NCBI GenBank assembly: GCA_025059595.1
Contig: JANXDI010000012.1
Coordinates: forward strand, 1 to 32,000
Direction of reading: 5' to 3'
From: Candidatus Calditenuaceae archaeon
GTDB taxonomy: Archaea > Thermoproteota > Nitrososphaeria_A > Caldarchaeales > Calditenuaceae
Length of the DNA: 32,000 nt
Shown here one piece after another: positions 4,821 through 22,689 of the stretch. Position numbers and translations under genes: made by a program. The notes beneath the pieces were generated by a model that saw only the letters and a program-made list of their open reading frames with translations, did not search any database and had not been told where the DNA came from. Position 1 is the stretch's first letter. The number at the start of each line of letters is the position of its first letter.

Positions 4821-6594
4821 TCTGGAGCTCGAACAATCCTACTGTTATATTTCCGGATAACCATATGGCTATGAGGGAGATTACTGACATTATTATGGCG
4901 TGTTTGAATCCTCCGGCTATCGTTGAGCCTGAGATTTTACCGGCGACTATTCCGCTTATGACTGCGATTATTATGACTGGTGGGAGGAAAAAGTGTATGA
5001 ACTCAGCGGACGATATGCTTAGGCGGGCAAGCTTCAGCAGGCCCTTCATGAAGGAGACAAGTATGACTACGACGACTATGAGGAGGACCGCGGTGAGGTA
5101 GGGAATAATCATCAGCGGCTTCAGCGTTGCGCGCTTCTGCCTCTCAATCTCCTCCAAGTCCTCCGAGAACGTGGCGAGAACTTCGAATGTCTCCGGCGCT
5201 CCGCCGCCGACATCTATCGCGTCTATCAGTATGAAGACTCCCGCCCTCTCGAGCCAGCCGTAGGTCCGCTTGGCAAAGTCCTCGTAAATCTTTCTGAGGG
5301 GCATTCCCCAGCCTATCTGCCTAGCCATGATTTTGAGGTGTTTGCTGAAGGCTCCGTAGGGGTTTCGCGAGAGGTCGATGATGCACCTCTCGGGGCTTAG
5401 GCCGGTCTTCCTGACCTCCGTGATGTCTCTGAGGAAGAGTGTGAGACCGTGGACGACTGAGAAGTTCTCGGAGCCATATCTCTGGTATGCGATTGCGGCT
5501 GGTGTGAAGAGGATTATGGAGAAGAGGATGAGGGCTATGGAGGACTCGTAGCCCATCTCGATTCCCATGGCCTTCCTTATCTCGACTATGATGCCGGATG
5601 TTATGTCGAAGGGCGGGATGTATTGCAACTCTGTGAGGAAGAAGGGCACCGCGAAGAGAGCGAGGAAAGCGAAGGCCGCGGGCATGGTGAAGTATAGGAC
5701 CCTCATCGGCCTCGGGTCTGTTATTGGGTATTTCGGCTGGCTTATGTCTGCGAGGTAGAGGAAGAGCACCGCGAGGAGGGGTAGGAAGAGGTAGGCTATC
5801 ATGGCGAACTGCTCGGAGGGCATTATGAGGAACTCGGTGGGGAGGGCTCTTGAGACTATGTAGATTGTGAATAGGACGAGTGAGAGCATCATCGTTATCG
5901 CCGCGTAACCCTCCATCAGCATGCCCATCCTCTCACCCACGATACGCATCTTACCCATCCGCGAGGTGAAAATCTGCTCCGTCTTCCTGATGAGGAAGTG
6001 GACCACGTCTCCGCCGCTCCGAATCGTCGAGGCGTAACCCATGAGGAGGTCTCTATACTCCTTGCTGGGTAGGCCTTTGGCCATCTTCTCGATTGCCGAG
6101 ACAGGGTCGAGTCCGCCGACCTTGACGTTCAGGTCTGCGAGCTTGGCGGCCTTGGCTATGTTGGGCATGAGCTGGCTCTGGGCGAGCCGTGAAAGGCTTT
6201 TGTATGGTGGTATTCCGCCTGTGGACATGACTGCGAGGTAGGCGGCGGCGTAGGGGACCTCGCTCTCGAAGAGCGTCGCGGCGGAGGAGGCAGCCATGTA
6301 TGGCCAAGCAAGCCCCAAGCCGAGGGCGATCAGGGGGATACTCCCAATGAGCCCAAGCCCAATTAGGCTGCCTGTGAAAAGATAAACAACAACGGCCAAG
6401 GGGATGGAGATTATCGCAGTTACCACCACCACAGCAGCCACAATTGAAGTGAAGACCTCCGGGTAGATGCGTTTCCCAGCGCTCTCGAGCTTGGATGGTA
6501 TTCCCGGCGCTATTCGGAGAAGAAGCGTCCCAAGACCCCTAAAGTTCGAGTATGAGAAGCTGGTGAAAGACTCGCTGAACCCCATGACTAACAA
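4810..6594 (-). CDS. FlaJ/TadC-type polytopic membrane platform protein
   Basis: 594 aa with two soluble T2SS-F-like segments (e.g. GYASTIRSGGDVVHFL and IMARQIGWGMPLRKIYEDF...IDAIDVGGGAPETFE) separated by clusters of TM helices. It sits next to the ATPase. ATG at 6594 lies about 20 nt downstream of a TATA box. Confidence 0.85.
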   Translation of the reverse strand: MLVMGFSESFTSFSYSNFRGLGTLLLRIAPGIPSKLESAGKRIYPEVFTSIVAAVVVVTAIISIPLAVVVYLFTGSLIGLGLIGSIPLIALGLGLAWPYMAASSAATLFESEVPYAAAYLAVMSTGGIPPYKSLSRLAQSQLMPNIAKAAKLADLNVKVGGLDPVSAIEKMAKGLPSKEYRDLLMGYASTIRSGGDVVHFLIRKTEQIFTSRMGKMRIVGERMGMLMEGYAAITMMLSLVLFTIYIVSRALPTEFLIMPSEQFAMIAYLFLPLLAVLFLYLADISQPKYPITDPRPMRVLYFTMPAAFAFLALFAVPFFLTELQYIPPFDITSGIIVEIRKAMGIEMGYESSIALILFSIILFTPAAIAYQRYGSENFSVVHGLTLFLRDITEVRKTGLSPERCIIDLSRNPYGAFSKHLKIMARQIGWGMPLRKIYEDFAKRTYGWLERAGVFILIDAIDVGGGAPETFEVLATFSEDLEEIERQKRATLKPLMIIPYLTAVLLIVVVVILVSFMKGLLKLARLSISSAEFIHFFLPPVIIIAVISGIVAGKISGSTIAGGFKHAIIMSVISLIAIWLSGNITVGLFELQTTP

Positions 6595-6609
6595 TCTATC
6601 TACGACGGA

Positions 6610-6619
6610 TTATATATAA
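6610..6619 (-). promoter_or_regulatory. TATA box for the platform gene (near-leaderless)
   Basis: TTATATATAA lies 16-25 nt upstream of the minus-strand ATG at 6594. Confidence 0.5.
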
Positions 6620-6673
6620 GAGTTGTCTATCTTTAAGCCGAGCCACCGCTTCTACTGGAATTTTCAGTCTAGC

Positions 6674-6684
6674 AAAATATATAT
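6674..6684 (+). promoter_or_regulatory. TATA box for the small pilin gene (near-leaderless)
   Basis: AAAATATATAT is centred about 29 nt upstream of ATG 6709. Confidence 0.5.
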
Positions 6685-6708
6685 CAGGGAGACCAGAATC
6701 ATTCGAGT

Positions 6709-7110
6709 ATGATGAATAGAAGAAAAGCAGGTATCAGCCCGGTCGTAGCAACGGTGATACTCGTCGCAGTAGCAATCGTAATAGCCATCGCGGTAGCCTT
6801 CTGGGCCTCAGGACTCGTAGGAGTCTTCACAAGATTCGAAAAAATAGAGATACAAACAGCATACTGGGACGGAGAAAGAGTCGTAGTGATTGCGAAGAAC
6901 ACCGGGTCAAGCCCAGCAGTAGTAGACATGATATTAGTGAACGGATTGCCCTGCGTAACGGCAACAAACATAGCACTTCCGGTGGGAGGCTCAGCCATCA
7001 TCAATGTCAGTGTAGGAGCCACCTGTGTTCAACAAGGAGGCATTACTAACGAGATTGCACTCCACACAACTAGCGGAAAGACCTACCCAGTAGCGGTCCT
7101 CGTACCGTAA
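6709..7110 (+). CDS. archaeal type IV pilin-like protein (class III signal peptide), candidate major pilin
   Basis: N-terminus MMNRRKAG|ISPVVATVILVAVAIVIAIAVAF has a short basic leader, Gly at -1, and a hydrophobic helix, as in the archaeal pilin N-terminal domain. This is followed by a small beta-rich domain (VVVIAKNTGSSPAVVDMILVNG). 133 aa with two Cys. Confidence 0.85.
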   Translation: MMNRRKAGISPVVATVILVAVAIVIAIAVAFWASGLVGVFTRFEKIEIQTAYWDGERVVVIAKNTGSSPAVVDMILVNGLPCVTATNIALPVGGSAIINVSVGATCVQQGGITNEIALHTTSGKTYPVAVLVP

Positions 7111-7123
7111 ATTCGCAGCCCAA

Positions 7124-7139
7124 TATTTTTATTGTTTTA
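7124..7139 (+). terminator. oligo-T archaeal terminator candidate after the pilin gene
   Basis: TATTTTTATTGTTTT begins 14 nt after the TAA stop at 7108-7110. Confidence 0.4.
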
Positions 7140-7214
7140 CCCCCTGCAATTGTTATCTAGCCCCCTCTCTAAACCTTTAAGGCTTATAGACTACGAATCT
7201 TTCTTAGTCTACCC

Positions 7215-8117
7215 TTGAGCCGCGCCGGGCATAGGCCTCTCCGCACGCTGGTGGTAATCTGCGCATATAATGAGGAGAATAGCATCGCCACGCCAGTCGC
7301 TCAGGCCATCCGAGAAGGCTTCGAGGTTCTGGTCGTTGACGACGGAAGCGAGGATAGGACGTCGGAAATCGCTAAGGCCCATGGTGCCGAGGTAATCAGA
7401 AACGACGTGAGGGGTGGAAAGGCTTTAGCGCTGAGTAGAGCGATATCTTACGCGAAGGAACATGAATACGAAGCGATAATTGAGGTAGGTGCAGACGCGG
7501 TGCCGGTAGAGGGAGGCATAAGCAGGCTATACAGATACCTCACCCTTCCAAGCGTAGGAGGTGTCTCGGCGCGCCAAATACCACTGGGGAGTGGGCCGGC
7601 ATACAGGATTGATGAGCTCATGTGGAGCATTCTAGCGGAGGGGAAGTCGCTTCAGCAGAGGCTGGGCAGGCAGGTCCACCTCGGCGCGGTGATGTATGGT
7701 GCCAAACTCAGGCACATTAGGGCAGTTGCAGGGGTAATCAACGATGACGAGTTCGTCGGCATACTCGTGAGCAGAGACGGTGGGAAAAACTACTTCGCGG
7801 AGGACTGCGTAGCCTATTTCGACGCATCCTCATCAATAAAGCACCTCTTCAATAGAAGGAAGCGCATGATATTGGGGCACCTCCAGCTCGGAAAATCAAC
7901 CGCGCCCAGCATGCAGCCAAGCATACTCACAGCCGCAACACTACTAGCAATAGTCAAGAAAACGTCCAGACTGATGTGGCTTGTACCTGCCCTAATAATC
8001 GAAATAGCGGCGCGCTTGTCGGCATTTAGAGATTCGCGAAAAGTCGATAAACTGGCGGAATACGTTAGGTGGCACACGCATGGAATGAAAAAACCGATAC
8101 AGCGCCATGTAACATAA
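7215..8117 (+). CDS. family 2 glycosyltransferase (polyprenyl-phosphate sugar synthase-like)
   Basis: N-terminal GT-A signature VVICAYNEENSI...VLVVDDGSEDRTSEIA and a C-terminal hydrophobic segment (LTAATLLAIV...WLVPALIIEIAA), as in DPM/ArnC/GtrB-type enzymes. TTG start. Confidence 0.85.
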   Translation: MSRAGHRPLRTLVVICAYNEENSIATPVAQAIREGFEVLVVDDGSEDRTSEIAKAHGAEVIRNDVRGGKALALSRAISYAKEHEYEAIIEVGADAVPVEGGISRLYRYLTLPSVGGVSARQIPLGSGPAYRIDELMWSILAEGKSLQQRLGRQVHLGAVMYGAKLRHIRAVAGVINDDEFVGILVSRDGGKNYFAEDCVAYFDASSSIKHLFNRRKRMILGHLQLGKSTAPSMQPSILTAATLLAIVKKTSRLMWLVPALIIEIAARLSAFRDSRKVDKLAEYVRWHTHGMKKPIQRHVT

Positions 8118-8169
8118 AGGCTAGCTAGGAGCCGTTATACGATGAGATTGAATTTTGTAATCGACGCCT

Positions 8170-8586
8170 TCAGATTCTTCCAATCAGTATGGCGCCCACT
8201 ATTATGAGGGCCACACCTATCCACTGCTCTGGGGTGGGTTTCTCGCCTAATGCTAAGATTCCGACCAGAACTATCGAGAGGATTGATAGTGAGAGGAAGA
8301 ATCTTCCCAGCATTACTCCGAGGTCGCTGTAAACCCAGTAGCTTAGGACAGCGACTGTGAAGCCCGTAAGCATGGCGAGTATGAACCACTTATTGAAGAA
8401 GAGCGTGAAGAGAAATGTCAGGGAGACCTCAGGCGCGCCGACCTCCCTCAACGCGAATCCCCAGAAGAGCGTGTTCAGCCCCACAAAGACGGCGACGAGA
8501 AGCCCAACAACCCAGATTGTAGAGTCCACTCCTCCCCCTCCTCGGAGCATTGTTCGCGGAGATTGCGGATATAACTCTTCAAACAC
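8170..8586 (-). CDS. small single-EamA-domain membrane protein (ArnE/F- or SMR-like candidate flippase)
   Basis: 138 aa with 4 predicted TM helices. The C-terminal GEKPTPEQWIGVALIIVGAILI is the typical EamA domain end. The start may instead be the internal Met (MLRGGGG, 8550). Confidence 0.6.
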   Translation of the reverse strand: MFEELYPQSPRTMLRGGGGVDSTIWVVGLLVAVFVGLNTLFWGFALREVGAPEVSLTFLFTLFFNKWFILAMLTGFTVAVLSYWVYSDLGVMLGRFFLSLSILSIVLVGILALGEKPTPEQWIGVALIIVGAILIGRI

Positions 8587-8657
8587 TCTGAGGGAGCGAG
8601 CATATCAAGGGATTAATAGGGCGGCTGCCGGCTCTTGGCCGGTGCGCTGACAGGGGC

Positions 8658-10007
8658 GTGAAGAGAGGCGGAGACGGCTGGAGGACGGTGGCCACGCTTG
8701 CCCTAATAGTCTCCTTAGGGTTCGCGATACGCTTCACCATCTGGATATACCCAATGTATGGTGTTCAGAGCCTACTAATCTTCGACACGGGTTCTTACCC
8801 CATCTTCGGGCTGGCCTACATTCACGCGATAACCACGATGAACTTCACAGCACTCACCAGCATAAACCCGGGCGTCCCACCCATCGGCATGCTCCTCACA
8901 GGCCTATCAACGCAGACGTTTGGAGAGCTTATCGGCCCGATCCAAGCCAGCCTCATCCCACCTGTCACGGCCTCAGCCCTCACAGCAATCCCAGCCTACC
9001 TCATCGCCAAGAGATATGCGGGGAGGGCGGCCCTTCTGGCCCCGGCCCTCGTGTCGTTCGACCCATTCCTAATCCAATTCTCCGCAACGTACCTCGACTC
9101 CATCGGTACGCTTTTCGCAGCGGCGTCGGCCGCCTACGTCATCGATTCGAGTAGCAGAAGGTCCTTCAGTCTCGCCATCTTCTTCGCCACCCTCGCAGCT
9201 CTGACAAAACTCTCGTTCACCATCTTCACGGCGATATTCGCGCTCCTCCTACTCCTCAACAAGGAGCTCACTGCGAGGAGGGCTATCCTCTACCTGCTTA
9301 TTCCGCCAGCCTCGCTGGTCCTCAGCCCCGGTGTCTGGAGACCCTCCAACATCGGGGCCATAGTCGAGGGGCATCTCGCCTTTAACAACGTGCCTCTTGC
9401 GCCTCTCCTCAGCCCATTCGTCATAGACGTCCCACTATCCCTACCTTGGCACATCCTCTCATACCTCGGAATGGGTCAAGTCTCATGGAACACTCTGCCG
9501 CACGTAACGCCGCTGGCCGTCCTCCTGATGGTGGCCTACCAAGCCGCGAGAAATGAGTTGCGGATACCTCGTGGCGCCGCGATTCCAGCCTCGGCGATAG
9601 TCTTGGCAATCTTCCTGCTGCCGAGGGGCTACTGGACCTACAGCTGGGCCGGGGGCGCCGTTCAGGGGGTTCTGGCGCGCCAGTTCTATCCCTACTACTT
9701 CTACCCTGTAGGCCCCTTCCTAGCAGTCTTAGCGGCGGCAGTCTTCGCATCCGACGCAGGCCACAGACCCGCGGGCAGACTCGCGACCTACCCCGCACTG
9801 CTGGCCGCCCTCGTCTCGCCGCTAGCCGTGGTGATGAGCTTCGGCCTCCCCTACTGGGACTTCATCTTCAACCTAATCTACAGCGCCTCGCAGGGAAGCT
9901 GGATGGCGGAGGGGATAGCGGCCGCGGGCATCACCACGGCCATTCTCGCCGCGGTCTTAGCGGCAGCCGAGCTGATACACAGACGGGCACAACGAATAGG
10001 GGGTTAG
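8658..10007 (+). CDS. polytopic membrane protein, putative GT-C fold glycosyltransferase (ArnT/PMT-like)
   Basis: 449 aa with about 11-12 TM helices. The first extracytoplasmic loop carries an acidic/aromatic motif (LLIFDTGSYPIF) in the position of the GT-C DE/DxD loop. It is adjacent to the GT2 and EamA genes. Family assignment is inferential. Confidence 0.5.
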   Translation: MKRGGDGWRTVATLALIVSLGFAIRFTIWIYPMYGVQSLLIFDTGSYPIFGLAYIHAITTMNFTALTSINPGVPPIGMLLTGLSTQTFGELIGPIQASLIPPVTASALTAIPAYLIAKRYAGRAALLAPALVSFDPFLIQFSATYLDSIGTLFAAASAAYVIDSSSRRSFSLAIFFATLAALTKLSFTIFTAIFALLLLLNKELTARRAILYLLIPPASLVLSPGVWRPSNIGAIVEGHLAFNNVPLAPLLSPFVIDVPLSLPWHILSYLGMGQVSWNTLPHVTPLAVLLMVAYQAARNELRIPRGAAIPASAIVLAIFLLPRGYWTYSWAGGAVQGVLARQFYPYYFYPVGPFLAVLAAAVFASDAGHRPAGRLATYPALLAALVSPLAVVMSFGLPYWDFIFNLIYSASQGSWMAEGIAAAGITTAILAAVLAAAELIHRRAQRIGG

Positions 10008-10023: not shown

Positions 10024-11328
10024 TTAAGGAGCCTGCGAGGCAAGAGGTGCTCTGCAGGCCGTCATGACGTTTCCTCCCTCAACCCACCACTTACAGACGT
10101 AGACCACCCCTAATATCTCAGGAGAGCGGAAGTCAAACCGCCCGTAGTTGTCGCGAGTTATGAGGCCCTGCGCCCCATCCAGTCTAATCCTGTAGATGAA
10201 GAAGCCTCCATAATCCTTCTTACTCGTGCCAGGGTCCGTGACTTCTATCGTGAAGAAGCCCAAGTAAGAGGTCCCTGGCGAGAGAGTCGGGATGCTCTGG
10301 CTCAGAGGCGAGGCATTCAAAGTAATATTATTAAACGATACAAACTCTAAAACAACATTAACGTTTCTCAGAGGCTCCGTTATGTTCCCAAGCGTTACAA
10401 TGTAGGGTATCGTAACATTGACCTCCAAGTCGCTCCCATTCATCAGGACCATCATGTTCCTCTGAAGCGTCATGACTTGGAGCGGAATCGGCCTCGGCGG
10501 GTCAAGCCTCACACCGACATCAACATGGACCACTACGTGGCTGCTGGCTACGACTCTTACCGGGTTGGGTGATACGTTGGCGCAGGAGCCGCCCGTCAAA
10601 TACGGGCACTGGAGGGCCCGCACCTCGTAGACGCCTGGCGCGATGTTGAACGCGAATACGTCGCTCAGGTCTTCGACCCTCGACACGAGCCTGCTCATTA
10701 CCGCCTTTTCCCTACAACCTGTCGCGAACTCCTCGCCCCTTACGGAGACGCATCCCCTTGTCATGTTGACGTTCACGTCGTCCTTCACGACAGACACCTC
10801 AACCTCGTATCTGTGACCTAGGCTTACGTTGCTTAACTGAACCATCAGGAGGTAGGGTAGCTTGTTCGGCCCGATTGGCTCCCCTGACACAAAGCTATTC
10901 CCCCTAAGGGTTGGGGCCCTCAAGACAACCACCTCGTTAGGCTCCAGATAGTAGTTTAGAGGCTTCATCAGAATGGCGCCGGGAGGAAGCTTATATTGCT
11001 CGTCGACAACCTGGAGGCCGAACCTGTTACTCTCGATATAGAGCGTAGGCACTGTAATCTCTATCGGCCCCCTATTCATCATCGTCAAGTATAGAGCCCT
11101 CTTTTGGAATGGGTGGAGCTCGGGGGGCTGCATCGTCAGAGTTATCTCCAGCTCCTCGTTAAGCTTCTCCACCTCGAACTGAAGCCTCCTCGAGACCTCA
11201 TCCATGAAGAGGGTCTGGAGCTGCTGAATATAGAGCCACATCGGAATCATGACGGTGAAAAATATCATCACCGCAACCGCCGTCCCAACCACCGCGGAGA
11301 TACCTGCCGACCTACTGCGACGCCCCAT
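10024..11328 (-). CDS. large pilin-like surface protein (class III signal peptide), 434 aa
   Basis: MGRRSRSAG|ISAVVGTAVAVMIFFTVMIPMW prepilin-like N-terminus, then the module LYLTMMNRGPIEITVPTLYI that resembles the first beta domain of the small pilin. 8 N-x-S/T sequons and 6 Cys in three close pairs. ATG lies 1 nt after the upstream stop. Confidence 0.7.
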   Translation of the reverse strand: MGRRSRSAGISAVVGTAVAVMIFFTVMIPMWLYIQQLQTLFMDEVSRRLQFEVEKLNEELEITLTMQPPELHPFQKRALYLTMMNRGPIEITVPTLYIESNRFGLQVVDEQYKLPPGAILMKPLNYYLEPNEVVVLRAPTLRGNSFVSGEPIGPNKLPYLLMVQLSNVSLGHRYEVEVSVVKDDVNVNMTRGCVSVRGEEFATGCREKAVMSRLVSRVEDLSDVFAFNIAPGVYEVRALQCPYLTGGSCANVSPNPVRVVASSHVVVHVDVGVRLDPPRPIPLQVMTLQRNMMVLMNGSDLEVNVTIPYIVTLGNITEPLRNVNVVLEFVSFNNITLNASPLSQSIPTLSPGTSYLGFFTIEVTDPGTSKKDYGGFFIYRIRLDGAQGLITRDNYGRFDFRSPEILGVVYVCKWWVEGGNVMTACRAPLASQAP

Positions 11329-11329
11329 C

Positions 11330-11857
11330 TCAGTTAGCCACCCCCGTCCTCGTAACCGTTATCGTGATAACCAACGTTGTGGTAGTGGTTGAGGTGACTA
11401 CCGTCGTCGTCGGGACAGTTGTGGTTCGGGCGTCAGACGTAGTTGAGACGATTGTCGTGACGGTGGTTGTGGGAGTGGTCACGGTGGTAGTAACGTAGAT
11501 GAAGGCCGTGGTCCGTGTGGTGGAAATAGTATAAACTGTCACCCATTGAGTAATCGTGGTCGTTGAAGTGATGCGCGTAGTGGAAAATGTAGTTGATGCG
11601 CTGGTTACTGTCCGTGTTCCACTTGTAAGAGTCGTGGTTGTGAACCTCGTTGTATAGCTAGTGACAGTTCTCGTGCCCTCGGTTAAGGTCGTCGTCGAGG
11701 ACGTTGTTACCCAGCTCGTGGTCGTGGTGGTTGTTGTCGTGGTGGTCGTGACAACCCTGAAGGTCTGGGCCAACCCAGAGAGGCTCAACGTAAGAAGCAC
11801 GATAACAGCTAGCGCAAGAGCTAGTGCCTTCCCGCCGCGCCTTACTCCCTTATCCAT
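11330..11857 (-). CDS. secreted Thr-rich low-complexity protein, 175 aa
   Basis: ATG start with a Sec-like signal peptide (KALALALAVIVLLTLSLSGLA|QT), followed by about 140 aa dominated by Thr/Val/Ser. This includes an 11-Thr run and an internal repeat TLTEGTRTVTSYTTRFTTT / TLTSGTRTVTSASTTFSTT. It overlaps the upstream gene by 16 nt. Confidence 0.65.
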   Translation of the reverse strand: MDKGVRRGGKALALALAVIVLLTLSLSGLAQTFRVVTTTTTTTTTTTSWVTTSSTTTLTEGTRTVTSYTTRFTTTTLTSGTRTVTSASTTFSTTRITSTTTITQWVTVYTISTTRTTAFIYVTTTVTTPTTTVTTIVSTTSDARTTTVPTTTVVTSTTTTTLVITITVTRTGVAN

Positions 11858-12426
11858 GAATTAACCCACCTCCTAATTAGAGGATACACAACTAGCGGCC
11901 CTAGGGAAAGATAGAGCATTACCTGCCAGCCGAGCGGCCACCAATGAGGCACGAATATAAACGCTTCACCTGAGCCCTGACCACTACCACCCCCCACAGT
12001 CGTCGTGCTCGTCGTCCTGCTCGTTACAGTCGACGTGACATACACCGTAGAAGTGAACGTGCTTGTCAATGTCCTCGTGGTGGTGAAAGTCGTGGAGACC
12101 GATGTGACTGTGTTGGTTATAGTCGGGCTAAAAGACGTGCGAACCACAGTCACTACACTGGTTATCGTAGAAGTTCGAGTAGCGGTGAAGCTCGTCGTGG
12201 TGCGTATCACGATATGTGTTCCGGTTGATACGACCACGGTGGTTACCCTAGTCACTGTCTCTGGAACTGTTCGCGTCGTTGAGGGGGTTACTGTTGTGGA
12301 CGTAGATACGATGGTCGAGACGGTTGTAGTGGTTGTCCGCGGAATGGTCGTCGTAGTGACTCTTGTAGTGGTCATAGTCACGGTCTCCGTGACCGTTGAC
12401 GTTGTTGTGGTGGTGATTATAGGGGT
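11333..12426 (-). repeat. extreme Thr-codon (ACN) low-complexity coding region spanning two adjacent genes
   Basis: The plus strand is strongly G/T-rich (GTN/NGT). The minus strand encodes T/V/S/R-rich sequence in residues 381-524 of the 574-aa protein (11995-12426) and residues 36-175 of the 175-aa protein (11333-11752). Confidence 0.85.
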
Positions 12427-13566
12427 GACATCCATGGTCCTCACAACAACTCTGCCGATGTCGAAGACATATACGGGCGTGTCGAGCACAACGCTGTACT
12501 GGTTGATAATCAGGGAAAGGCCGCCCATCAATATCTGGACCCTGAGAATGCCCCGAGCGATCAGCACGTTGTTGCAGTCGTATATCTCGACAACAAGCTC
12601 GTAGTCACCGTCCTCCCAGAAGCCAATCGAGAGGATCATCTCATCGATTCTCATATTATTGAGATTAAGCCGCATTTTGGAGTAGTCGATGTAGTTTCCG
12701 AAGCTGCTCGGGAATCCCCAGCTTTGGGGGAGTATTGTGACGTCTGGCATGAGGGATTGAATCTCGACTACTAGAGGTGTCCGGAGACCGCCCCTATCGA
12801 GCTGGACGTAAACCTCTTGTGGTAGGTCGCCGGTTACTCTCGCAGTCCCCCTAGCAACCACTCCATTCGCATCCGTGACTGTTACTTGGAAGTCGTAGGA
12901 GGCCATTCTTCTGCTGGCGTTGAGCAGCCTGACTTTGATGAAGTCTGTTGTGACTCCGTAGATGTTCTCCTCCTTGGGGTCCACCAGCTCTATCAGGAGC
13001 CAGTGGTTTGTTGGGAGTTCGCAACCACTTGCTAGACCATAGCGCGGCTCAGAGGCCTCGAAGGTCGCTACCTTGAAGAGAAGCGTCTCGCTGTCCGGCT
13101 TGGAGAGGGCCGGGTTGTCAGGGTCGTAGAGCTGCTCCGGAATGTAGTGGACTTGAACGAGTATTCTGTCGCCCGGAGAGCAGACGCTACCGGGGCATCT
13201 GAAGGCTAAGGCTGTTCTCTCATTTACCGGGATTCTGGCGTGGTCGTCTATCCCGGAATCATAGACCACGGTGCCATTCTTTATGGTGAGTATTCTGAAG
13301 ACGATGACCGGCTCCCTGCCCGTGTTTCTTAGAAGCATGACGCCCCTGTCGGCTCCGCCAAAGATTTTATCAGGATAGTAGACATATTCTGCGCCTATGT
13401 TAGACCTGAGGATTAGCGCCTGGTCGCCCAGCTGTCTAACCTCCTCCTGACGCCAGACTCCCGCATAGCTACTTAGAAAGACCCACAGGGCTATACCGGC
13501 GGACAAGACCGCCGCAAGTATCAACACAGTCGAAACGATCTCGCTGTATCCTCTTTTCCGCCTCAT
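11842..13566 (-). CDS. large pilin-like surface protein with Thr-rich stalk and C-terminal hydrophobic anchor, 574 aa
   Basis: MRRKRG|YSEIVSTVLILAAVLSAGIALW class III-like signal. A body of about 340 aa is colinear with the upstream 386-aa protein. This is followed by a 144-aa Thr/Val/Ser/Arg region, a GGGSGQGSGE linker and a hydrophobic tail WWPLGWQVMLYLSLGPLVVYPLIRRW. Confidence 0.75.
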   Translation of the reverse strand: MRRKRGYSEIVSTVLILAAVLSAGIALWVFLSSYAGVWRQEEVRQLGDQALILRSNIGAEYVYYPDKIFGGADRGVMLLRNTGREPVIVFRILTIKNGTVVYDSGIDDHARIPVNERTALAFRCPGSVCSPGDRILVQVHYIPEQLYDPDNPALSKPDSETLLFKVATFEASEPRYGLASGCELPTNHWLLIELVDPKEENIYGVTTDFIKVRLLNASRRMASYDFQVTVTDANGVVARGTARVTGDLPQEVYVQLDRGGLRTPLVVEIQSLMPDVTILPQSWGFPSSFGNYIDYSKMRLNLNNMRIDEMILSIGFWEDGDYELVVEIYDCNNVLIARGILRVQILMGGLSLIINQYSVVLDTPVYVFDIGRVVVRTMDVTPIITTTTTSTVTETVTMTTTRVTTTTIPRTTTTTVSTIVSTSTTVTPSTTRTVPETVTRVTTVVVSTGTHIVIRTTTSFTATRTSTITSVVTVVRTSFSPTITNTVTSVSTTFTTTRTLTSTFTSTVYVTSTVTSRTTSTTTVGGGSGQGSGEAFIFVPHWWPLGWQVMLYLSLGPLVVYPLIRRWVNSWIRE

Positions 13567-13567
13567 G

Positions 13568-14698
13568 TTAATACTCCTCCACCAGCACGTCTATGCGCGC
13601 TATATCCATCAATAGGATTGGGGGTACGTCAACGAACACTGAGTCTGTGAAGATGCCCCTCGGTACGTTCGTAATTACGAACCTAGATGTGATTAGCTCG
13701 CCGTTACAGTCGTACAGGTTTACGGTTATCCTGTATCTTCCACCCACTAGGTCGTTGACGCCCAGCTCAACCTCAACCACGTCAACCATCTTCTCAGCAT
13801 TTGACCATAGAGTCACTCCCGAGGCATGAGCCTTCCAAGGTATTCCTCCTAGCCTCCACTCACGCTGAAGCACGTTAAACCCGGCAGCCAGAACATGGAT
13901 GCGGAGGGGGGTCTGAAATCCTCCGAAACTGCCTGTGAAACTATACATCTCGTTGCCGATGGTAGGCACGTTGCGTGTAGCGAATCCGTAGGCGCCGGAC
14001 GCGTTGATGACTTGTATATCAACTGAGACTGTGGCACTTGAGGATGCGTAGGGAAATCTGGCATGGATTCTGTTGTTAGGTTGCGACGGAATCTTTCCCG
14101 TGTCACTATATGTGACTGGGTCTATCACATCCACCGTCATCCAGTTGGGGGGTAAGGGGCATCTAGCCGCTACTCCGCCTGGCGGATAGACAAAGACCGT
14201 CTCAACATATCGCATCTCATCCGCAGACAGGACTGGATTCTCCTCGTTAAACAGGGCGGAGGCGACATACCAGACCCTCAGCCTCAGAGTCTCCAAAGGA
14301 AGGCATGTGGCGCAGAGGGGTATAACGCCTCCGCTTAGTGTGGCATTTCCGCTGGGGAGTAGCTCGGCCAGCTCGGTGAAGCCGGTCGACGGATACGAGG
14401 CTTTTAGTGCTCCTCCCGGGGTCAATATCTCTATTCTAGTGACTATGACTGGCACATCCGCTATGTTTCGGAGAATGATGCTTCTCTCCCTGCTTGTGAA
14501 GTTAACAGCCTCGAAGGAGAGCTGGGCCGATGTCTTGACTAGGAGTATAGCCCTGTTAGCCTCGTTGGTGGAGGATTGGAGCGTGGCGCCAAGCCACCCG
14601 GAGGCCACGCCGAGGATGAATATTCCCATGCCTACCGTTAGGGCGGCCAAGATAACAGCCCCTATAGTAGTGTCTCCATTACTCCTCCCCCTCGTCAT
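13568..14698 (-). CDS. large pilin-like surface protein, paralog of the 574-aa protein
   Basis: With ATG 14698 the N-terminus is MTRGRSNG|DTTIGAVILAALTVGMGIFILG, a short basic leader plus hydrophobic helix. The ORF extends to GTG 14728. Colinear motifs shared with the downstream paralog include RYRITVNLYDCNGELITSRFVI vs DYELVVEIYDCNNVLIARGILRV and CPLPPNWMTVDVIDP vs CELPTNHWLLIELVDP. Confidence 0.75.
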   Translation of the reverse strand: MTRGRSNGDTTIGAVILAALTVGMGIFILGVASGWLGATLQSSTNEANRAILLVKTSAQLSFEAVNFTSRERSIILRNIADVPVIVTRIEILTPGGALKASYPSTGFTELAELLPSGNATLSGGVIPLCATCLPLETLRLRVWYVASALFNEENPVLSADEMRYVETVFVYPPGGVAARCPLPPNWMTVDVIDPVTYSDTGKIPSQPNNRIHARFPYASSSATVSVDIQVINASGAYGFATRNVPTIGNEMYSFTGSFGGFQTPLRIHVLAAGFNVLQREWRLGGIPWKAHASGVTLWSNAEKMVDVVEVELGVNDLVGGRYRITVNLYDCNGELITSRFVITNVPRGIFTDSVFVDVPPILLMDIARIDVLVEEY

Positions 14699-14753
14699 AC
14701 GCCGTCGACGGCCGCCCAGTATAACCACCTTCTAAAGCCTATGAACCTAACAG

Positions 14754-14763
14754 CTATATAACT
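14754..14763 (-). promoter_or_regulatory. TATA box for the pilin-like operon
   Basis: CTATATAACT (AGTTATATAG on the minus strand) lies about 26-35 nt upstream of GTG 14728, within an AT-rich divergent intergenic region. Confidence 0.45.
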
Positions 14764-14812
14764 ATTTTATTGATTTTAAACCTGTTAACGTGTTGGCTAT
14801 TGATAATCGCAT

Positions 14813-14827
14813 TTACCGACCCGGTAA
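14813..14827. promoter_or_regulatory. perfect inverted repeat TTACCG-N3-CGGTAA, candidate operator
   Basis: Read directly: ttaccg acc cggtaa. It lies between the two divergent TATA-like elements. Confidence 0.25.
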
Positions 14828-14900
14828 CATTTTCGCACACCTGGTTAGGTTAATTATAACTATTGGCCATAGCTGTTCGGTTCATTAGAAAGCTAAAGAT

Positions 14901-14912
14901 TCTTATATCATT
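14901..14912 (+). promoter_or_regulatory. TATA box candidate for the membrane/zinc-ribbon gene
   Basis: TCTTATATCATT lies about 25 nt upstream of in-frame GTG 14932. The stretch 14863-14930 is AT-rich and unlikely to be coding. Confidence 0.35.
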
Positions 14913-14931
14913 AAAAGACCTTCATCTAATA

Positions 14932-16602
14932 GTGTGTAGTGGTGTGACGCGCCAAGTATCATCCCTCAATAGGATGCTCGGGTTCATGGGCTTATCGCTT
15001 ATGTTGTCGTTCGCTTCTTGGATTGTCGGTGGCGAGTTTTTCAGGATTGTGATAAGCTCAGTCCTGCCTTTCGAGGAGCCTTTAAGAGCTTATCCCTCAT
15101 ACGCCTTCACAGGCCTGATACTCGGGGCGATGAACGCCCTCATCCTATACAAGTTAGTCAGTGGTTCGAAAGGGATTCTGGCTTTTATGGCTTTGGGGGC
15201 TGTCGCGGGCTGGGGAGGCGCCTTTGCTCTGACGATTTTTGCCAGCATATTTGACGTCTCTGTTGTATTGGGCTGGGCTTTAGGGCTGGCTACCTTTATC
15301 CTCATTATGCTTGGTCTGGTGAGGCTTTTGGCGATTGAGGCTATGAGGCCCCAGCTTCAGCGGGAGAGAGGTCAGATTGTTCAACTGCCTCCACAGACAA
15401 AGCCTCAGCCCGCACCAGCGATAACTGCTCAAGAACCATCTGCCCAGCCACCGGCCCAGCAACCAGAGGAGGCTCCACCCACTCCGCCTCCAACCTCAGC
15501 AGCAACTCCTCAGCCCCCTCCCACCGCACTGGCCGAGGCTAAACCATCTCCGGCTGCTCCAGCCACTATTCCTCCCCTGACGACCATTATTCCACCCACC
15601 CCTCCGCCACCGTCAGAGCCTACTCAGAGTATCGATGAGCTCGAGGAGGTGCTTGTAGAGATTATAGCTGAGGAGGGAATTACGGAGCTTATTCCGCTTC
15701 CAAACAACACGTCGCCCGAGGGCGGCTCTTATCCTGAGATTGAGTCTAAGCTTGGAGTTGACACAACTACGCTCCTCAAGGTTGTGAAGAGGCTGATGGA
15801 TAAGAATTATGTCAGGCTTTCCGGGGTGGAGTTTAAGAAGGTTGCCTGCCCTCACTGCCAGAGTGCCCTAAACGTCCTTAATCTTAGCTGCAGGGCCTGC
15901 GGCTCGACCAACATCGGGAGGCAGAGGATTCTTCAGCACGAGGCCTGCGGTTATCTCGGGCCTGAAGACAGCTTCACCGTCGGCGGAAGAACCATTTGTC
16001 CGCGCTGTGGAAGCGGTGTGAAGATTCTGAGGGGCCCGCTCGAGGAGGAGCATGAACAGATACTCAAGGTCCACTCAAGCTTCTTCATTTGCTACAACTG
16101 CAACGAGGTCAGCCCAGACCCCCACATCTCCTTCAGGTGCCTTACCTGCGGACTAGACTATGACTTGAGCGGCTTCGAGTTCAAGACCTTCTACAGATAC
16201 GCAATCAACCCCGAAATGATAAGCGGGCTGCAGGAGCAGAAGAGGCCGATTAGGCTAATCGCTGAGGAGTTGAAGAGGCTTGGATTCGAGGTTCAGATTG
16301 GGGCCCGGATTACGGGGGCGTCGAAGGTCCGGCATAAGGTTGACCTTCTCTACAGCCGCCTCGGCCAGACTAGGGGGGCTGTCTTCCTGTTCAGCGATAG
16401 GGGGGGCATGAAGATTCACGATGTGATGAAGATTATTGTTATGAAGGCGGACACTAGAATAGACAGCGTCAAGATACTCTGCCTCGGACAGCTGGACAAC
16501 GATTCGAAGAGGCTGGCCGAGCTTTACAATATTTTGGTCATCGAGAATATAGCTTCGAAGGAGCTGGCGACTGACGTTATGCCGCGCATAGTCTCCGCGT
16601 AG
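14932..16602 (+). CDS. membrane-anchored protein with Pro-rich linker, winged-helix-like segment, three zinc ribbons and a C-terminal alpha/beta domain
   Basis: 4 N-terminal TM helices, then a linker of about 95 aa rich in Pro/Ala/Gln (PPQTKPQPAPA...PPTPPPPSEP). Next comes an HTH-like segment (SYPEIESKLGVDTTTLLKVVKRLMDKNYVRLSG), the Cys motifs CPHC..CRAC, HEAC..CPRC, CYNC..CLTC, and a C-terminal domain containing GASKVRHKVDLL. The ORF is open from TTG 14863; the likely start is GTG 14932 or ATG 14974. Confidence 0.7.
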   Translation: MCSGVTRQVSSLNRMLGFMGLSLMLSFASWIVGGEFFRIVISSVLPFEEPLRAYPSYAFTGLILGAMNALILYKLVSGSKGILAFMALGAVAGWGGAFALTIFASIFDVSVVLGWALGLATFILIMLGLVRLLAIEAMRPQLQRERGQIVQLPPQTKPQPAPAITAQEPSAQPPAQQPEEAPPTPPPTSAATPQPPPTALAEAKPSPAAPATIPPLTTIIPPTPPPPSEPTQSIDELEEVLVEIIAEEGITELIPLPNNTSPEGGSYPEIESKLGVDTTTLLKVVKRLMDKNYVRLSGVEFKKVACPHCQSALNVLNLSCRACGSTNIGRQRILQHEACGYLGPEDSFTVGGRTICPRCGSGVKILRGPLEEEHEQILKVHSSFFICYNCNEVSPDPHISFRCLTCGLDYDLSGFEFKTFYRYAINPEMISGLQEQKRPIRLIAEELKRLGFEVQIGARITGASKVRHKVDLLYSRLGQTRGAVFLFSDRGGMKIHDVMKIIVMKADTRIDSVKILCLGQLDNDSKRLAELYNILVIENIASKELATDVMPRIVSA

Positions 16603-19732: not shown

Positions 19733-22483
19733 TTACCGCTGTTGCTCGCGCCTATCCAGAGCCTCGCTCACCGCTCTAGCGCGGGCCCCCGTATCCCTCC
19801 CAGCCACTCCCACTCCTCGAGCCTCTGGCCTCAGCTTAAGCTCGACGTAAACCTCGTCCCCTCGGTGCTTTATCTCGAAGCCCAGCTTCCTACACAAACC
19901 AATCATCTTGACGTTCTCGGGAAGCACAATACCGTATATCGAGTCCAGCCCCCTCTCCTGCGCAATCTCGATAATCATGTCCGTCAGCTTGGTTCCGAGC
20001 CCTACACCCTGAAAGTCGTCGGCGACGAGAACCGCGAACTCCCCCCTCTTAGCCTCGCGGTCCATGATGAGCCTACCGACACCGACGTTCCTCTTCCTAC
20101 CACCCTCACTATACTCCGCTATGATCGCGATCTCCCTGTCATAGTCTATGTTGCAGAGCCTAACTAGCATCTCGTGTGTTACCTCTCTTATTACTTGGAA
20201 GAACCTGAACCTGCTCGACTCCTCGGAGAGTCCCTTGATTAGCTCGTATTCGAGCGGCTCGTCCTCGGGCCTGATTGGGCGGAGGAGAACCTCCCTTCCA
20301 TCCCTAAGCCTCCAAGGCCTCACATACCTCGTGGGGTAGGGCGATATGACCAAGTGGCTGTAAGGCTCTGAGGTCTCCACACAGCTGCTATCCAGTACGA
20401 CTCTAAAGTCCACGGCATAGGCCTTGTCGCCGGAAACTATGAGGGGGTTAATCTCAGCCTCCCTAATCTCAGGGAAGTCCACAATCATGTTGGAGAACCG
20501 CACAATTATCTCCTCAAGCTTCTTCATGTCGGCCGGCGGCTTATTCCTCCAGCCGCGCGCAAGAATGCTGTATATCTTCGTCTCCTCCATCAGCCTCCTC
20601 GCGAGAACTTGATTGAGCGGCGGCAGACCTATCGAGTAGTCTCTGATATACTCGGTTGCTGTGCCCCCAGAGCCGAACAGAATAACGGCGCCGAAGTCCG
20701 GGTCTCGCGTCGAGCCAAGAATGAGCTCGTAATTCACCGGCCGAGCCATCCTCTGGACATAAATCCCCTCGACGCGGGCGTTAGGCATCCTCGACCTCAC
20801 CGAGTCCACAAGCCTAACAAACGCCTCTCTCAGCTCGGCCTCGGACGAGATGTTCAGGACAACGCCGTTGAAGTCCGTCTTATGGACTATGTCGGGGGAG
20901 ACAATCTTCAGGGCGACGGGGTATCCTAGCCTAGCCGCTATGACGAGAGCCTCGTTTAGACTAGTCGCCAGCTCACCCTTCGCCCTCGGAATACCGTAAG
21001 CGTCTAAGAACCTGTCGCACTTATCCAGCGTCAAGACCGTCCGCCCCTCAGCCAACTCCCTCCTTATCAGAAGCTTCAGGAAGTTCTTGGGTGGTGTGGG
21101 GTCTATCTGCAGGTCCTCCGGGGTCTCGTAGAGCAGCTCAAGGTTCCGCTTATACTTGTAGATATATGTGTATGTTTTGACCGCTTCCTCCGGAGTGCTG
21201 TATGTCGGAATATCGTTTCGATAGAATAGCTCTCTCGCCGGAAGAACCTCGTCGCCTCCCATCCACACTGTAAGAACCGGCTTCACGCGGCCGCTCTCAT
21301 CAACTATGTTTATCACCTCTTTTGCGAGGTCAAGCGGCTTGGCCGCGCCCTGCGGAGTATAGATGACTATGATATCGTCGACTTGTGGGTCTGAGAGGCA
21401 TGCCCTGAGGGCCACGGAGTATCTATTGACGTCTGCGTCTCCGAGGACGTCTATGGGGTTGCCTCCGCTCCAGTAGGGTGGTAGAACCCGGTTAAGGAGT
21501 TCGACGGTCTGGCTGGAGAGCTCGGCCAGCACACCCCCATACTCCACGACAGCATCAGCCGCAATAACGCCCGGCCCGCCGGCGTTCGTTATGACAGCCA
21601 ACCTAGGTCCAGCAGGCAGACGCCTTGAATCCAAGACACTCGCACAGTTGAAGAGGTCCTTTATCTCGTCGACCCTCACGACACCAGCCCTCCTAAACGC
21701 CGCCCTATACACCTCGAAGCTCCCAGTCATGGCTCCGGTGTGGGATTGGGCGGCTCTGGCGGCTGCGGGTGATTTGCCCGGCTTCATGACGATTATGGGC
21801 TTGTTTCTCGCGAAACCCCTCGCCGCGCTCATGAACTTCCTCGCATTCCCCACACCCTCCATGTAAATCAGTATGCTACGCGTGTAGGGGTCTCTGCCGA
21901 GAAAATCGATCAGGTCACCAAAGTCTATGTCTAGCATCGAGCCTAAGGAGACGAACATGCTGAAGCCGACGTGCGCGCTGACGGCCCAGTCGAGGATTGC
22001 CGAGCCGAGCGCGCCGCTCTGAGAAATGAACGCTATCTGGCCGGGCTCAGGGTCTTTGAGGAGGAATGTCGAGTTAAGCCCTATTGGAGGCCTGATGAAT
22101 CCGAGGCAGTTGGGGCCGAGTATTCTCAAGCCATATTTCTGCCTCAGCCTCCTTATCTCCTCCTCAAGCCTCCGCCCCTCCTCACCGGTCTCCTTGAATC
22201 CAGCTGAGACGATGACCGCTCCCTCGACACCAGCCTCGCCGCACTCCGCCACAACCGCGGGGACAGTCTTCGCAGGCGTGGCAACCACAGCAAGGTCCAC
22301 ATGCTCCGGAACCTCACCTATAGAGGGATAGCACTTGATTCCCAAAACACTCTCTCTGTTGGGATTGACCGGATAGACCTGCCTATCCCTGTTGGACTTG
22401 AGGAGGTTATGGAGAAGAGCCAGTCCGACACTACCCTCCCTCTCAGTCGCCCCAATCAAAGCGACGACCGAGGGGTTAAACAT
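19733..22483 (-). CDS. fused ADP-forming acetyl-CoA synthetase (alpha+beta)-like protein with C-terminal GNAT acetyltransferase domain (Pat-like architecture)
   Basis: MFNPSVVALIGATEREGSVG CoA-binding N-terminus, SHTGAMTGS phosphohistidine loop and an ATP-grasp region. The C-terminus has GNAT motif A (LVADDFQGVGLGTKLTDMIIEIAQERG). The ORF extends to TTG 22501; ATG 22483 is the more likely start. Confidence 0.85.
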   Translation of the reverse strand: MFNPSVVALIGATEREGSVGLALLHNLLKSNRDRQVYPVNPNRESVLGIKCYPSIGEVPEHVDLAVVATPAKTVPAVVAECGEAGVEGAVIVSAGFKETGEEGRRLEEEIRRLRQKYGLRILGPNCLGFIRPPIGLNSTFLLKDPEPGQIAFISQSGALGSAILDWAVSAHVGFSMFVSLGSMLDIDFGDLIDFLGRDPYTRSILIYMEGVGNARKFMSAARGFARNKPIIVMKPGKSPAAARAAQSHTGAMTGSFEVYRAAFRRAGVVRVDEIKDLFNCASVLDSRRLPAGPRLAVITNAGGPGVIAADAVVEYGGVLAELSSQTVELLNRVLPPYWSGGNPIDVLGDADVNRYSVALRACLSDPQVDDIIVIYTPQGAAKPLDLAKEVINIVDESGRVKPVLTVWMGGDEVLPARELFYRNDIPTYSTPEEAVKTYTYIYKYKRNLELLYETPEDLQIDPTPPKNFLKLLIRRELAEGRTVLTLDKCDRFLDAYGIPRAKGELATSLNEALVIAARLGYPVALKIVSPDIVHKTDFNGVVLNISSEAELREAFVRLVDSVRSRMPNARVEGIYVQRMARPVNYELILGSTRDPDFGAVILFGSGGTATEYIRDYSIGLPPLNQVLARRLMEETKIYSILARGWRNKPPADMKKLEEIIVRFSNMIVDFPEIREAEINPLIVSGDKAYAVDFRVVLDSSCVETSEPYSHLVISPYPTRYVRPWRLRDGREVLLRPIRPEDEPLEYELIKGLSEESSRFRFFQVIREVTHEMLVRLCNIDYDREIAIIAEYSEGGRKRNVGVGRLIMDREAKRGEFAVLVADDFQGVGLGTKLTDMIIEIAQERGLDSIYGIVLPENVKMIGLCRKLGFEIKHRGDEVYVELKLRPEARGVGVAGRDTGARARAVSEALDRREQQR

Positions 22484-22614
22484 CCTGTCCAAGCCACCCA
22501 AAAGCCTCTACCACCAACAATACATAAGACCCGCACACTAAATAGTCTATCCCAGAAAAAAACATATTCTTGGCCACACCGCCCGACGAGGCCCTAAACG
22601 CAGGCTCATATTCC

Positions 22615-22689
22615 TGCTCCGGCCGGGATTTGAACCCGGGTCTCCGGCTCGAAAGGCCGGCATACTTGTCCGGGCTATACTACCGGAGC
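22615..22689 (-). tRNA. tRNA-Glu (anticodon UUC)
   Basis: Reverse complement GCTCCGGTAGTATAGCCCGGACAAGTATGCCGGCCTTTCGAGCCGGAGACCCGGGTTCAAATCCCGGCCGGAGCA. Acceptor GCTCCGG/CCGGAGC, anticodon stem CCGGC/GCCGG with loop CTTTCGA, T-arm CCGGG-TTCAAAT-CCCGG. No encoded CCA. Confidence 0.9.

Follow-up and report, generated by a model that had tools for sequence, protein, structure and literature searches.

A membrane-anchored TackOD1-family protein in a type IV pilus locus of a Calditenuaceae archaeon and its possible regulatory role

In contig JANXDI010000012.1 of a Candidatus Calditenuaceae archaeon (assembly GCA_025059595.1), a hot-spring member of the Aigarchaeota (Caldarchaeales), a gene for a membrane protein with a cysteine-rich soluble part lies back to back with an operon of pilin-like genes, and the question was what kind of protein it encodes and whether this protein could control the pilus genes beside it. 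To our knowledge, next to nothing has been established, outside Sulfolobus, on how Thermoproteota/Nitrososphaerota (TACK archaea) control their type IV pili. The window analysed here comprised positions 1 to 32,000 of the contig, and the gene was placed at 14944..16602 on the forward strand. It was concluded that its product is very probably a member of the TackOD1 (arCOG06883) family anchored in the membrane, in which four transmembrane (TM) helices and a tether of about 90 residues hold a cytoplasmic unit of about 320 residues. According to the structure models, a winged-helix-like fold would be joined in this unit with three zinc ribbons and with an Mrr-type domain of the restriction-endonuclease fold that is catalytically degenerate. 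These ~320 residues form a conserved 'output' module of signalling, which in most sampled lineages is encoded in type IV pilus loci.

Residues were numbered in the frame called in the database, which begins at ATG 14974 and gives a protein of 542 amino acids (P0001). Residues 219-411 (nucleotides 15628-16206) matched the Pfam model TackOD1 (PF18551) at 81.8 bits (cut-off 32, E=5.9e-23) over model positions 5-188 of 188, and a precomputed TackOD1 match was present in all 38 database homologues. The resemblance to TackOD1, which an earlier note on this DNA had suggested from the letters alone, was thus borne out. In the published description, TackOD1 carries eleven conserved cysteines as five CxxC and one HxxC motifs, and its function was called obscure (PMC5847659). 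The protein studied here carried the ligand motifs CPHC 292, CRAC 306, HEAC 322, CPRC 342, CYNC 373 and CLTC 389 (five CxxC and one HxxC, residues 292-392), and the 11 cysteines and one histidine were invariant or near-invariant in 26 homologues. All defining features of TackOD1 were found except the REC fusion, which is optional for the Pfam family. The three zinc ribbons made up the C-terminal part of TackOD1 (15847..16206, forward strand), with the motifs at 15847-16149 exactly where the earlier note had put three Cys4 ribbons; the second (middle) ribbon, however, was of the His-Cys3 and not of the Cys4 type. Homologues of the protein were found under the automatic names 'ribosomal protein S27AE', 'transposase-like protein', 'RPC12/RpoP' and 'DUF1610', wrong names that arose because the zinc ribbons mislead annotation.

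A full-length AlphaFold2 (AF2) model was built on a 26-sequence alignment. In this model the N-terminal part of TackOD1 (15622..15846, forward strand) consisted of three helices (220-234, 254-260 and 264-276) and a long beta wing (strand 280-291). When residues 217-412 were modelled by themselves, again with AF2, the predicted local distance difference test (pLDDT) score was 88, and the three-helix bundle and the beta wing appeared in both models at a pLDDT of ~90. The winged-helix-like segment recognized earlier was therefore found again as helices and wing, but jointly with the three ribbons it formed one TackOD1 model and was not a standalone module. The only consistent local Foldseek matches of this part were the winged helices of FadR/GntR, AraR, YtrA, SlyA, DtxR and ZBP1, covering 64-71 columns with probabilities of 0.9-0.99. 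The model of residues 217-412 gave no significant PDB match with Foldseek, the three-ribbon part had no structural counterpart in the PDB, and sequence and profile searches of the PDB with the soluble part returned non-significant zinc-ribbon and winged-helix echoes only; hence, no TackOD1 structure has been solved. DNA binding by the winged helix would, on these models, be an unproven resemblance at the level of the fold.

The C-terminal alpha/beta domain, estimated earlier at about 130 residues, was ordered in the AF2 model (residues 412-542, 16207..16599, forward strand, pLDDT ~88-93) and followed the order alpha-beta-beta-beta-alpha-beta-alpha-beta. The core elements were helix 413-435, strands 439-447, 453-462 and 465-473, helix 481-494 and strand 498-503. 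A Foldseek search with the full model gave AF1548 (1y88) as the best match (E=8.4e-5) and also returned 1xmx/VC1899, the nuclease domains of Can2 and Cdn1, and MspJI at a probability of ~1.0; R2 endonuclease domains, EcoT38I and Bax1 were further matches. When a profile of the domain was compared with PDB sequences, AF1548 (1y88) was again first, weakly (E=0.07). Only noise was obtained when the domain alone was searched against Pfam, and the Mrr_cat model (PF04471) matched neither this protein nor its 11 close relatives. The homologous region of distant relatives exceeded the Mrr_cat threshold (E=9.3e-17 for P0051, 4.1e-13 for P0045 and 2.9e-5 for P0160). Because the aligned region of these distant members scores as Mrr_cat, the C-terminal domain was assigned, at the level of sequence, as a divergent Mrr_cat homologue.

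The catalytic residues of the fold were examined next to this assignment. In the profile alignment the ExK of AF1548 fell on V470-F471-L472, and the strand-3 (D/E)xK positions were hydrophobic in essentially all of the 184 sequences examined. The 'PD' aspartate, D457, was found in 21 of the 28 close sequences and in 94 of the 156 distant ones and was N, S or T in many. A polar set comprising G448-x-S450-G-x-x-H454-x-x-D457, K491-x-D493 and E524 was conserved over the same 184 sequences, which would imply a retained binding site. Measured against the canonical criterion, the domain is predicted not to be a nuclease, and it should not be classed as a restriction enzyme: it is apparently related to Mrr_cat and failed the catalytic-motif test. 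Five relatives in which a REC domain precedes TackOD1 (P0046, P0051, P0054, P0057 and P0081) contained a tandem second degenerate Mrr_cat-like copy with the signature GKSGAEHxFD ... FDxxAYDxGI and no (D/E)xK. The defence-system models of PADLOC matched neither the protein nor its relatives.

The membrane part consisted of four TM helices in the AF2 model (residues 2-30, 39-61, 66-90 and 95-123; pLDDT 84-92), and hydropathy concurred, in line with the four helices proposed earlier. The anchor occupied 14977..15342 of the forward strand (TM1 14977-15063, TM2 15088-15156, TM3 15169-15243 and TM4 15256-15342). The charges of the loops obeyed the positive-inside rule with a topology of N-in/C-in, and the soluble part with its zinc ribbons was therefore placed in the cytoplasm. 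As regards a prepilin-peptidase or other enzymatic role of the membrane part, which was also considered, the loops between the helices were short, and no conserved acidic pair was present in the helices of the homologue alignment. Between the anchor and the soluble unit, a disordered linker rich in Pro, Ala, Gln and Thr (15352..15621, forward strand) extended over residues 127-216, where pLDDT fell below 50; among its 91 residues were 31 prolines, 14 alanines, 11 glutamines and 10 threonines. The Pro/Ala/Gln linker of the earlier note was hence retained, at a length of about 90 residues. Both its length and its sequence varied among the homologues.

The breadth of the family was estimated by an exhaustive profile search with the soluble unit, which retrieved 2,483 representative clusters, 1,591 of them at E<=1e-10. 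The alignment extended through the C-terminal domain in 180 of the 184 sequences examined. Most members were stand-alone proteins of ~320-350 residues, some were fronted by a receiver (REC-TackOD1-Mrr_cat-Mrr_cat), and some carried multi-TM anchors with low-complexity linkers. The protein studied here had no REC domain and bore the TM anchor in its place. The profile of this anchor matched only the Aigarchaeal clade and P0039, so the membrane anchors of other family members are, as judged from their sequences, unrelated to it. Since the unit formed by TackOD1 and the Mrr-type domain occurs alone, behind REC and behind unrelated anchors, its distribution is that of an output module with alternative inputs.

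The link of the gene to type IV pili was then traced in the neighbourhood. The window contained the core genes of a type IV pilus, namely a PilB-type ATPase (2850-4820, forward strand), a PilC/T2SSF platform protein (4810-6594, reverse strand) and a small pilin (6709-7110, forward strand). The operon divergent from the TackOD1 gene (10024..14728, reverse strand) encoded pilin-like and Thr-rich surface proteins of 386, 574, 175 and 434 residues, three of the four with class III (pilin-type) N-termini, and TIGR02537 was detected in it at 18.4 bits, just under its cut-off. In 13 species-level genomes, as well as in several metagenomic contigs, the gene was always found within the pilus locus, while its placement varied. 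Two clades had it divergent from the pair of pilin-like genes, and in one of these clades the downstream neighbours were unrelated; in a third clade it was co-directional with and downstream of the pilin-like genes. In Caldarchaeum it stood directly upstream of pilB in the same direction, with gaps of at most ~80 nucleotides. Stand-alone relatives of ~25% identity headed TackOD1-pilin-PilB-PilC operons. A metagenome scan was performed with a narrower alignment, as the broad 40-sequence alignment was too divergent, and PilB/PilC were found within ~4 kb in 25 of the 35 stand-alone loci that had at least 3 kb of downstream sequence. About 10 of the 35 had no PilB/PilC nearby, and three of these that were inspected showed other neighbours. 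The pilus linkage is strong, survives at least four gene arrangements and is not absolute; the pairing with pilus genes was thus conserved through rearrangements. A conserved protein of ~265 residues was seen just downstream of stand-alone members outside pilus loci (6400-7209 in locus L049 and 3517-4305 in locus L055), which it may serve as another partner or target.

The mechanical open reading frame ran over 14863..16602 of the forward strand with TTG 14863 as its first codon. A start at this TTG was ruled out, as conserved promoter-like elements, including a TATA-like box at 14903-14908, lie inside the extension. The ATG of five orthologues lined up with GTG 14944 in an alignment of six loci, and the N-termini of orthologues reached 10-18 residues upstream of the database ATG 14974. 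Because of both observations, GTG 14944 is the most likely start of the gene, with the stop codon ending at 16602; GTG 14932, which the earlier note had used, is also possible. A search for RNA evidence of expression or of a transcription start found the sequence in hot-spring DNA metagenomes only.

The region between the two genes (14729..14943) had a GC content of 34%, compared with 55% in the window. An AT-rich promoter region shared with the divergent pilin-like operon had been proposed before; the composition and the sharing were confirmed, whereas the geometry proved specific to some clades, the gene of Caldarchaeum being co-directional with pilB. A footprint was made from six divergent loci whose proteins were ~61-66% identical, and four conserved elements stood out from intergenic DNA that was otherwise poorly conserved. 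A TATA-like box of the leftward operon lay at 14755-14760, ~27 nucleotides from the leftward start, and the box at 14903-14908 was that of the TackOD1 gene. An operator-like block (14800..14828 as a whole) was invariant in the six loci; it began with TTGATAATC-N3-TTTACCG at 14800-14818 and overlapped the palindrome TTACCG-ACC-CGGTAA at 14813-14827. This block was unique in the window: chance would give 0.08 matches, and one exact match and one with three mismatches (at 31302) were counted. Judged by its sequence, the block at 14800-14828 is a good operator candidate. The fourth invariant element, TTAATTATAA at 14850-14859 together with TTGGCCA at 14863-14869, was situated between the operator-like block and the gene-proximal TATA box. 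A 17-nucleotide inverted repeat (14741-14757 and 14869-14885, 94% complementary) was also observed, spanning most of the control region. The TTAATTATAA/TTGGCCA element and the inverted repeat could belong to a second promoter or a small transcript; the Rfam scan of the window detected two tRNAs only, none of them in the intergenic region.

We proposed that the protein may control the pilus genes beside it as a membrane-tethered, one-component-like regulator with a DNA-binding mechanism, to which we assigned a probability of about 40%. The membrane part would provide the location and perhaps a signal from the membrane or from the pilin pool. The tethered soluble unit would bind the AT-rich intergenic region common to the pilin-like operon, with TTGATAATC-N3-TTTACCG/TTACCG-N3-CGGTAA at 14800-14828 as the candidate site, and binding would modulate both divergent promoters. 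Contacts to the DNA would be made by the wing and the restriction-endonuclease-like domain, both basic, and by the ribbons, not by a classical recognition helix alone. We infer DNA binding because the winged helix, the ribbons and the restriction-endonuclease fold are types of module that usually bind nucleic acid, because a palindromic footprint lies between the divergent promoters, and because the wing (+2), the third helix H3 (+2) and the C-terminal domain (+4 to +5) are positive in this clade. A regulatory output, and any sensing, would follow the signal-output logic that is displayed by the REC-fused forms and by those with unrelated TM anchors. The ArnR/ArnR1 regulators of Sulfolobus, being membrane-bound, set a precedent for such control of type IV pili. 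A family of regulators was also preferred to an obligate part of the machine because some relatives sit outside pilus loci.

Several observations weighed against this proposal. The local matches to winged helices had E values of 0.1-0.7, i.e. a weak similarity, and the winged-helix Pfam models stayed below their thresholds (TrmB 13.4-15.3 bits with a cut-off of 25.6, MarR 12.8-14.5 bits with a cut-off of 24.6). The net charge of the winged-helix domain was -5 to -7 in this protein, with -6 for the whole segment 15622..15846. In the wider family, H3, the equivalent of a recognition helix, was net acidic in 69% and the C-terminal domain acidic in 73% of members. These charges, in the protein and in the family, are atypical of a conserved DNA-binding surface; only the ribbon region was net basic in most of the wider family. 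The operator-like block was not repeated before the other pilus genes of the window and was absent from more distant loci, being found only in the closest clade, and therefore no regulon could be defined. The block could be bound by another factor or be a part of the promoter. That the gene lies within the ATPase operon or heads it, as in Caldarchaeum and the stand-alone relatives, fits an accessory of the machine equally well. A search of the literature found two comparative-genomics papers on TackOD1 and no experiment on any member.

Some of these points suggest that the protein may instead regulate or scaffold the pilus machine itself, by binding the PilB ATPase (or PilC or pilins) and gating assembly or retraction, as ArlX/ArlCDE in the archaellum motor or the bacterial regulators of the PilG/PilH/PilZ type may be compared; the REC-fused relatives would then be the phosphorylation-controlled version. 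The acidic winged helix, H3 and C-terminal domain of most members, together with the gene lying just upstream of pilB in the same direction in Caldarchaeum and leading TackOD1-pilin-PilB-PilC operons among the stand-alone relatives, fit a direct contact with the pilus motor. A tether with a long flexible linker would place the unit beside the motor, and zinc ribbons and inactive restriction-endonuclease domains in general often mediate protein contacts. In addition, the arCOG authors counted arCOG06883 as a possible auxiliary component, structural or regulatory (PMC4858521). This explanation was nonetheless held to be somewhat doubtful, as about 10 of the 35 stand-alone loci have no PilB/PilC close by and the three soluble modules are all of kinds that as a rule bind nucleic acid. 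The unit of TackOD1 and the degenerate Mrr_cat domain could also be a restriction enzyme of the Mrr type (a winged helix and the endonuclease fold, with three zinc ribbons inserted) that TACK archaea domesticated as a dedicated output for signalling to the pilus; it would then work through direct motor contact, or through sensing of the pilin pool by the membrane anchor, and not as a classical transcription factor. This reading was rated as rather unlikely; the anchored, REC-fused and free forms would in that case be three inputs for one output.

An active nuclease of a non-canonical kind, or a DNA-processing module at the membrane serving pilus-linked DNA uptake or exchange or defence, is highly improbable for the C-terminal domain. 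The PD-(D/E)xK alternative of the earlier note was upheld as far as the fold is concerned (1y88 at E=8.4e-5 and Mrr_cat in relatives), with Mrr/AF1548, Can2, MspJI and R2 nuclease domains as the nearest structures. D457 is kept in most members, S450, H454, K491, D493 and E524 are conserved family-wide and duplicated in the REC-fused relatives, and some PD-(D/E)xK enzymes have migrated catalytic residues. The nuclease role became unlikely, however, with hydrophobic residues at the (D/E)xK strand-3 positions across the family, N, S or T in place of D457 in many members and no match to the defence-system models; moreover, the soluble part is cytoplasmic, whereas incoming DNA is met outside. The twelve invariant or near-invariant metal ligands, the basic ribbon region as the sole net basic part in most of the wider family, and weak sequence echoes of ribosomal or RNA polymerase zinc ribbons could also point to a Cys-rich metal or redox sensor acting through three zinc sites, or to an RNA-binding regulator with a post-transcriptional pilus output. 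Such a role is most improbable: the echoes did not reach significance (E>=0.04), zinc ribbons mostly have a structural role, and neither a pointer to RNA targets in the locus nor an Rfam element in the region was detected. We retained the membrane-tethered DNA-binding regulator as the preferred, tentative reading.

The other genes of the locus and of the window were also recorded. In the pilin-like operon, the 574- and 175-residue proteins (11330-13566, reverse strand) had very long stretches rich in Thr, Ser and Val, which are probably glycosylated stalks. The 574-residue protein combined a pilin-type N-terminus, MRRKRG followed by YSEIVSTVLILAAVL, with a C-terminal TM anchor, which is unusual in pilins. 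A Val-rich antisense open reading frame at 12005-12604 (forward strand) was a mirror artefact of the Thr codons. Inside the pilus locus there were a glycosyltransferase of family GT2 (7215-8117), an EamA-like fragment (8170-8586) and a polytopic membrane protein of 449 residues (8658-10007), which had no Pfam match and was kept there in nearly all related loci; taken together, the genes of 7215-10007 possibly form a pilin-glycosylation module. Two tRNA genes were located at 331-405 and 22615-22689, both on the reverse strand. A 922-residue fusion of an ADP-forming acyl-CoA synthetase and a GNAT acetyltransferase domain was encoded at 19733-22501 (reverse strand). The other genes were housekeeping ones, i.e. 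those for a thermosome, a DNA ligase, CO-dehydrogenase-type flavoprotein and FeS subunits, UbiA and a HemK-type methyltransferase.

The TackOD1 family and its linkage to pilus loci were known beforehand: arCOG06883 had been linked to type IV pilus loci with no function given (PMC4858521). It is new that the conserved unit, of about 320 residues, ends in a catalytically degenerate Mrr-type domain unmentioned in the published description, that membrane-anchored TackOD1 forms arose with unrelated anchors, and that in most members the 'recognition helix' is acidic, a finding that casts doubt on a simple transcription-factor reading. TackOD1 is the one lineage-spanning 'output domain' tied to the pilus loci of TACK archaea, a domain of which all members await characterisation. 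The present locus offers a confidently modelled example with a soluble construct of residues ~217-542, a candidate DNA site at 14800-14828 and candidate partners nearby. If its function were solved, it would explain how surface filaments are switched on and off in many ammonia-oxidising and hot-spring archaea. If the domesticated-Mrr reading were true, type IV pili would prove to have a new class of control proteins without a bacterial counterpart.

Among known systems, the ArnR and ArnR1 proteins of Sulfolobus acidocaldarius are membrane-bound regulators of the one-component type for the archaellum and the Aap pilus, and ArnR is composed of a helix-turn-helix at the N-terminus, a HAMP-like and a sensor domain and, at the C-terminus, two TM helices (PMC6396743). 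The present protein resembles them by a membrane anchor and a (putative) DNA-binding fold tied to archaeal type IV pilus-like structures. The order is, however, reversed here (four TM helices, linker, winged helix, ribbons and restriction-endonuclease fold), no HAMP match was found and no Pfam domain is shared. The analogy drawn in the earlier note is one of function and not of homology.

A closer relative is the TackOD1 response regulator NKOR_04565 of Nitrosopumilus koreensis, which has the same module of a winged-helix-like part with five CxxC and one HxxC motifs. The known TackOD1 proteins and the one studied here are alike in their place among the type IV pilus genes of TACK archaea, and both are of uncharacterised function. 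Where NKOR_04565 has a REC receiver, the present protein has a four-TM anchor and a disordered tether; NKOR_04565 (318 residues) ends after TackOD1, whereas a degenerate Mrr_cat-like domain follows here, as in most of the ~2,500 clusters.

In bacteria, PilS-PilR of Pseudomonas controls pilin expression by sensing pilin, and ToxR and CadC are membrane-tethered regulators. The protein studied here is similar to them in coupling a membrane module that lacks a large external domain to a cytoplasmic output for pilus or surface genes, and it differs in lacking a kinase, a receiver and any homologous domain; pilin sensing by its TM part would be pure conjecture. The comparison with Mrr concerns the soluble unit. 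In contrast to Mrr, hydrophobic residues replace (D/E/Q)xK in the C-terminal domain, three ribbons are placed between the winged helix and the restriction-endonuclease fold, and the defence context is missing. The likeness to Mrr and AF1548 lies in the common alpha-beta-beta-beta-alpha-beta core and the G-x-S-G...D strand-2 region, and the order of a winged helix followed by an Mrr_cat domain recalls Mrr itself.

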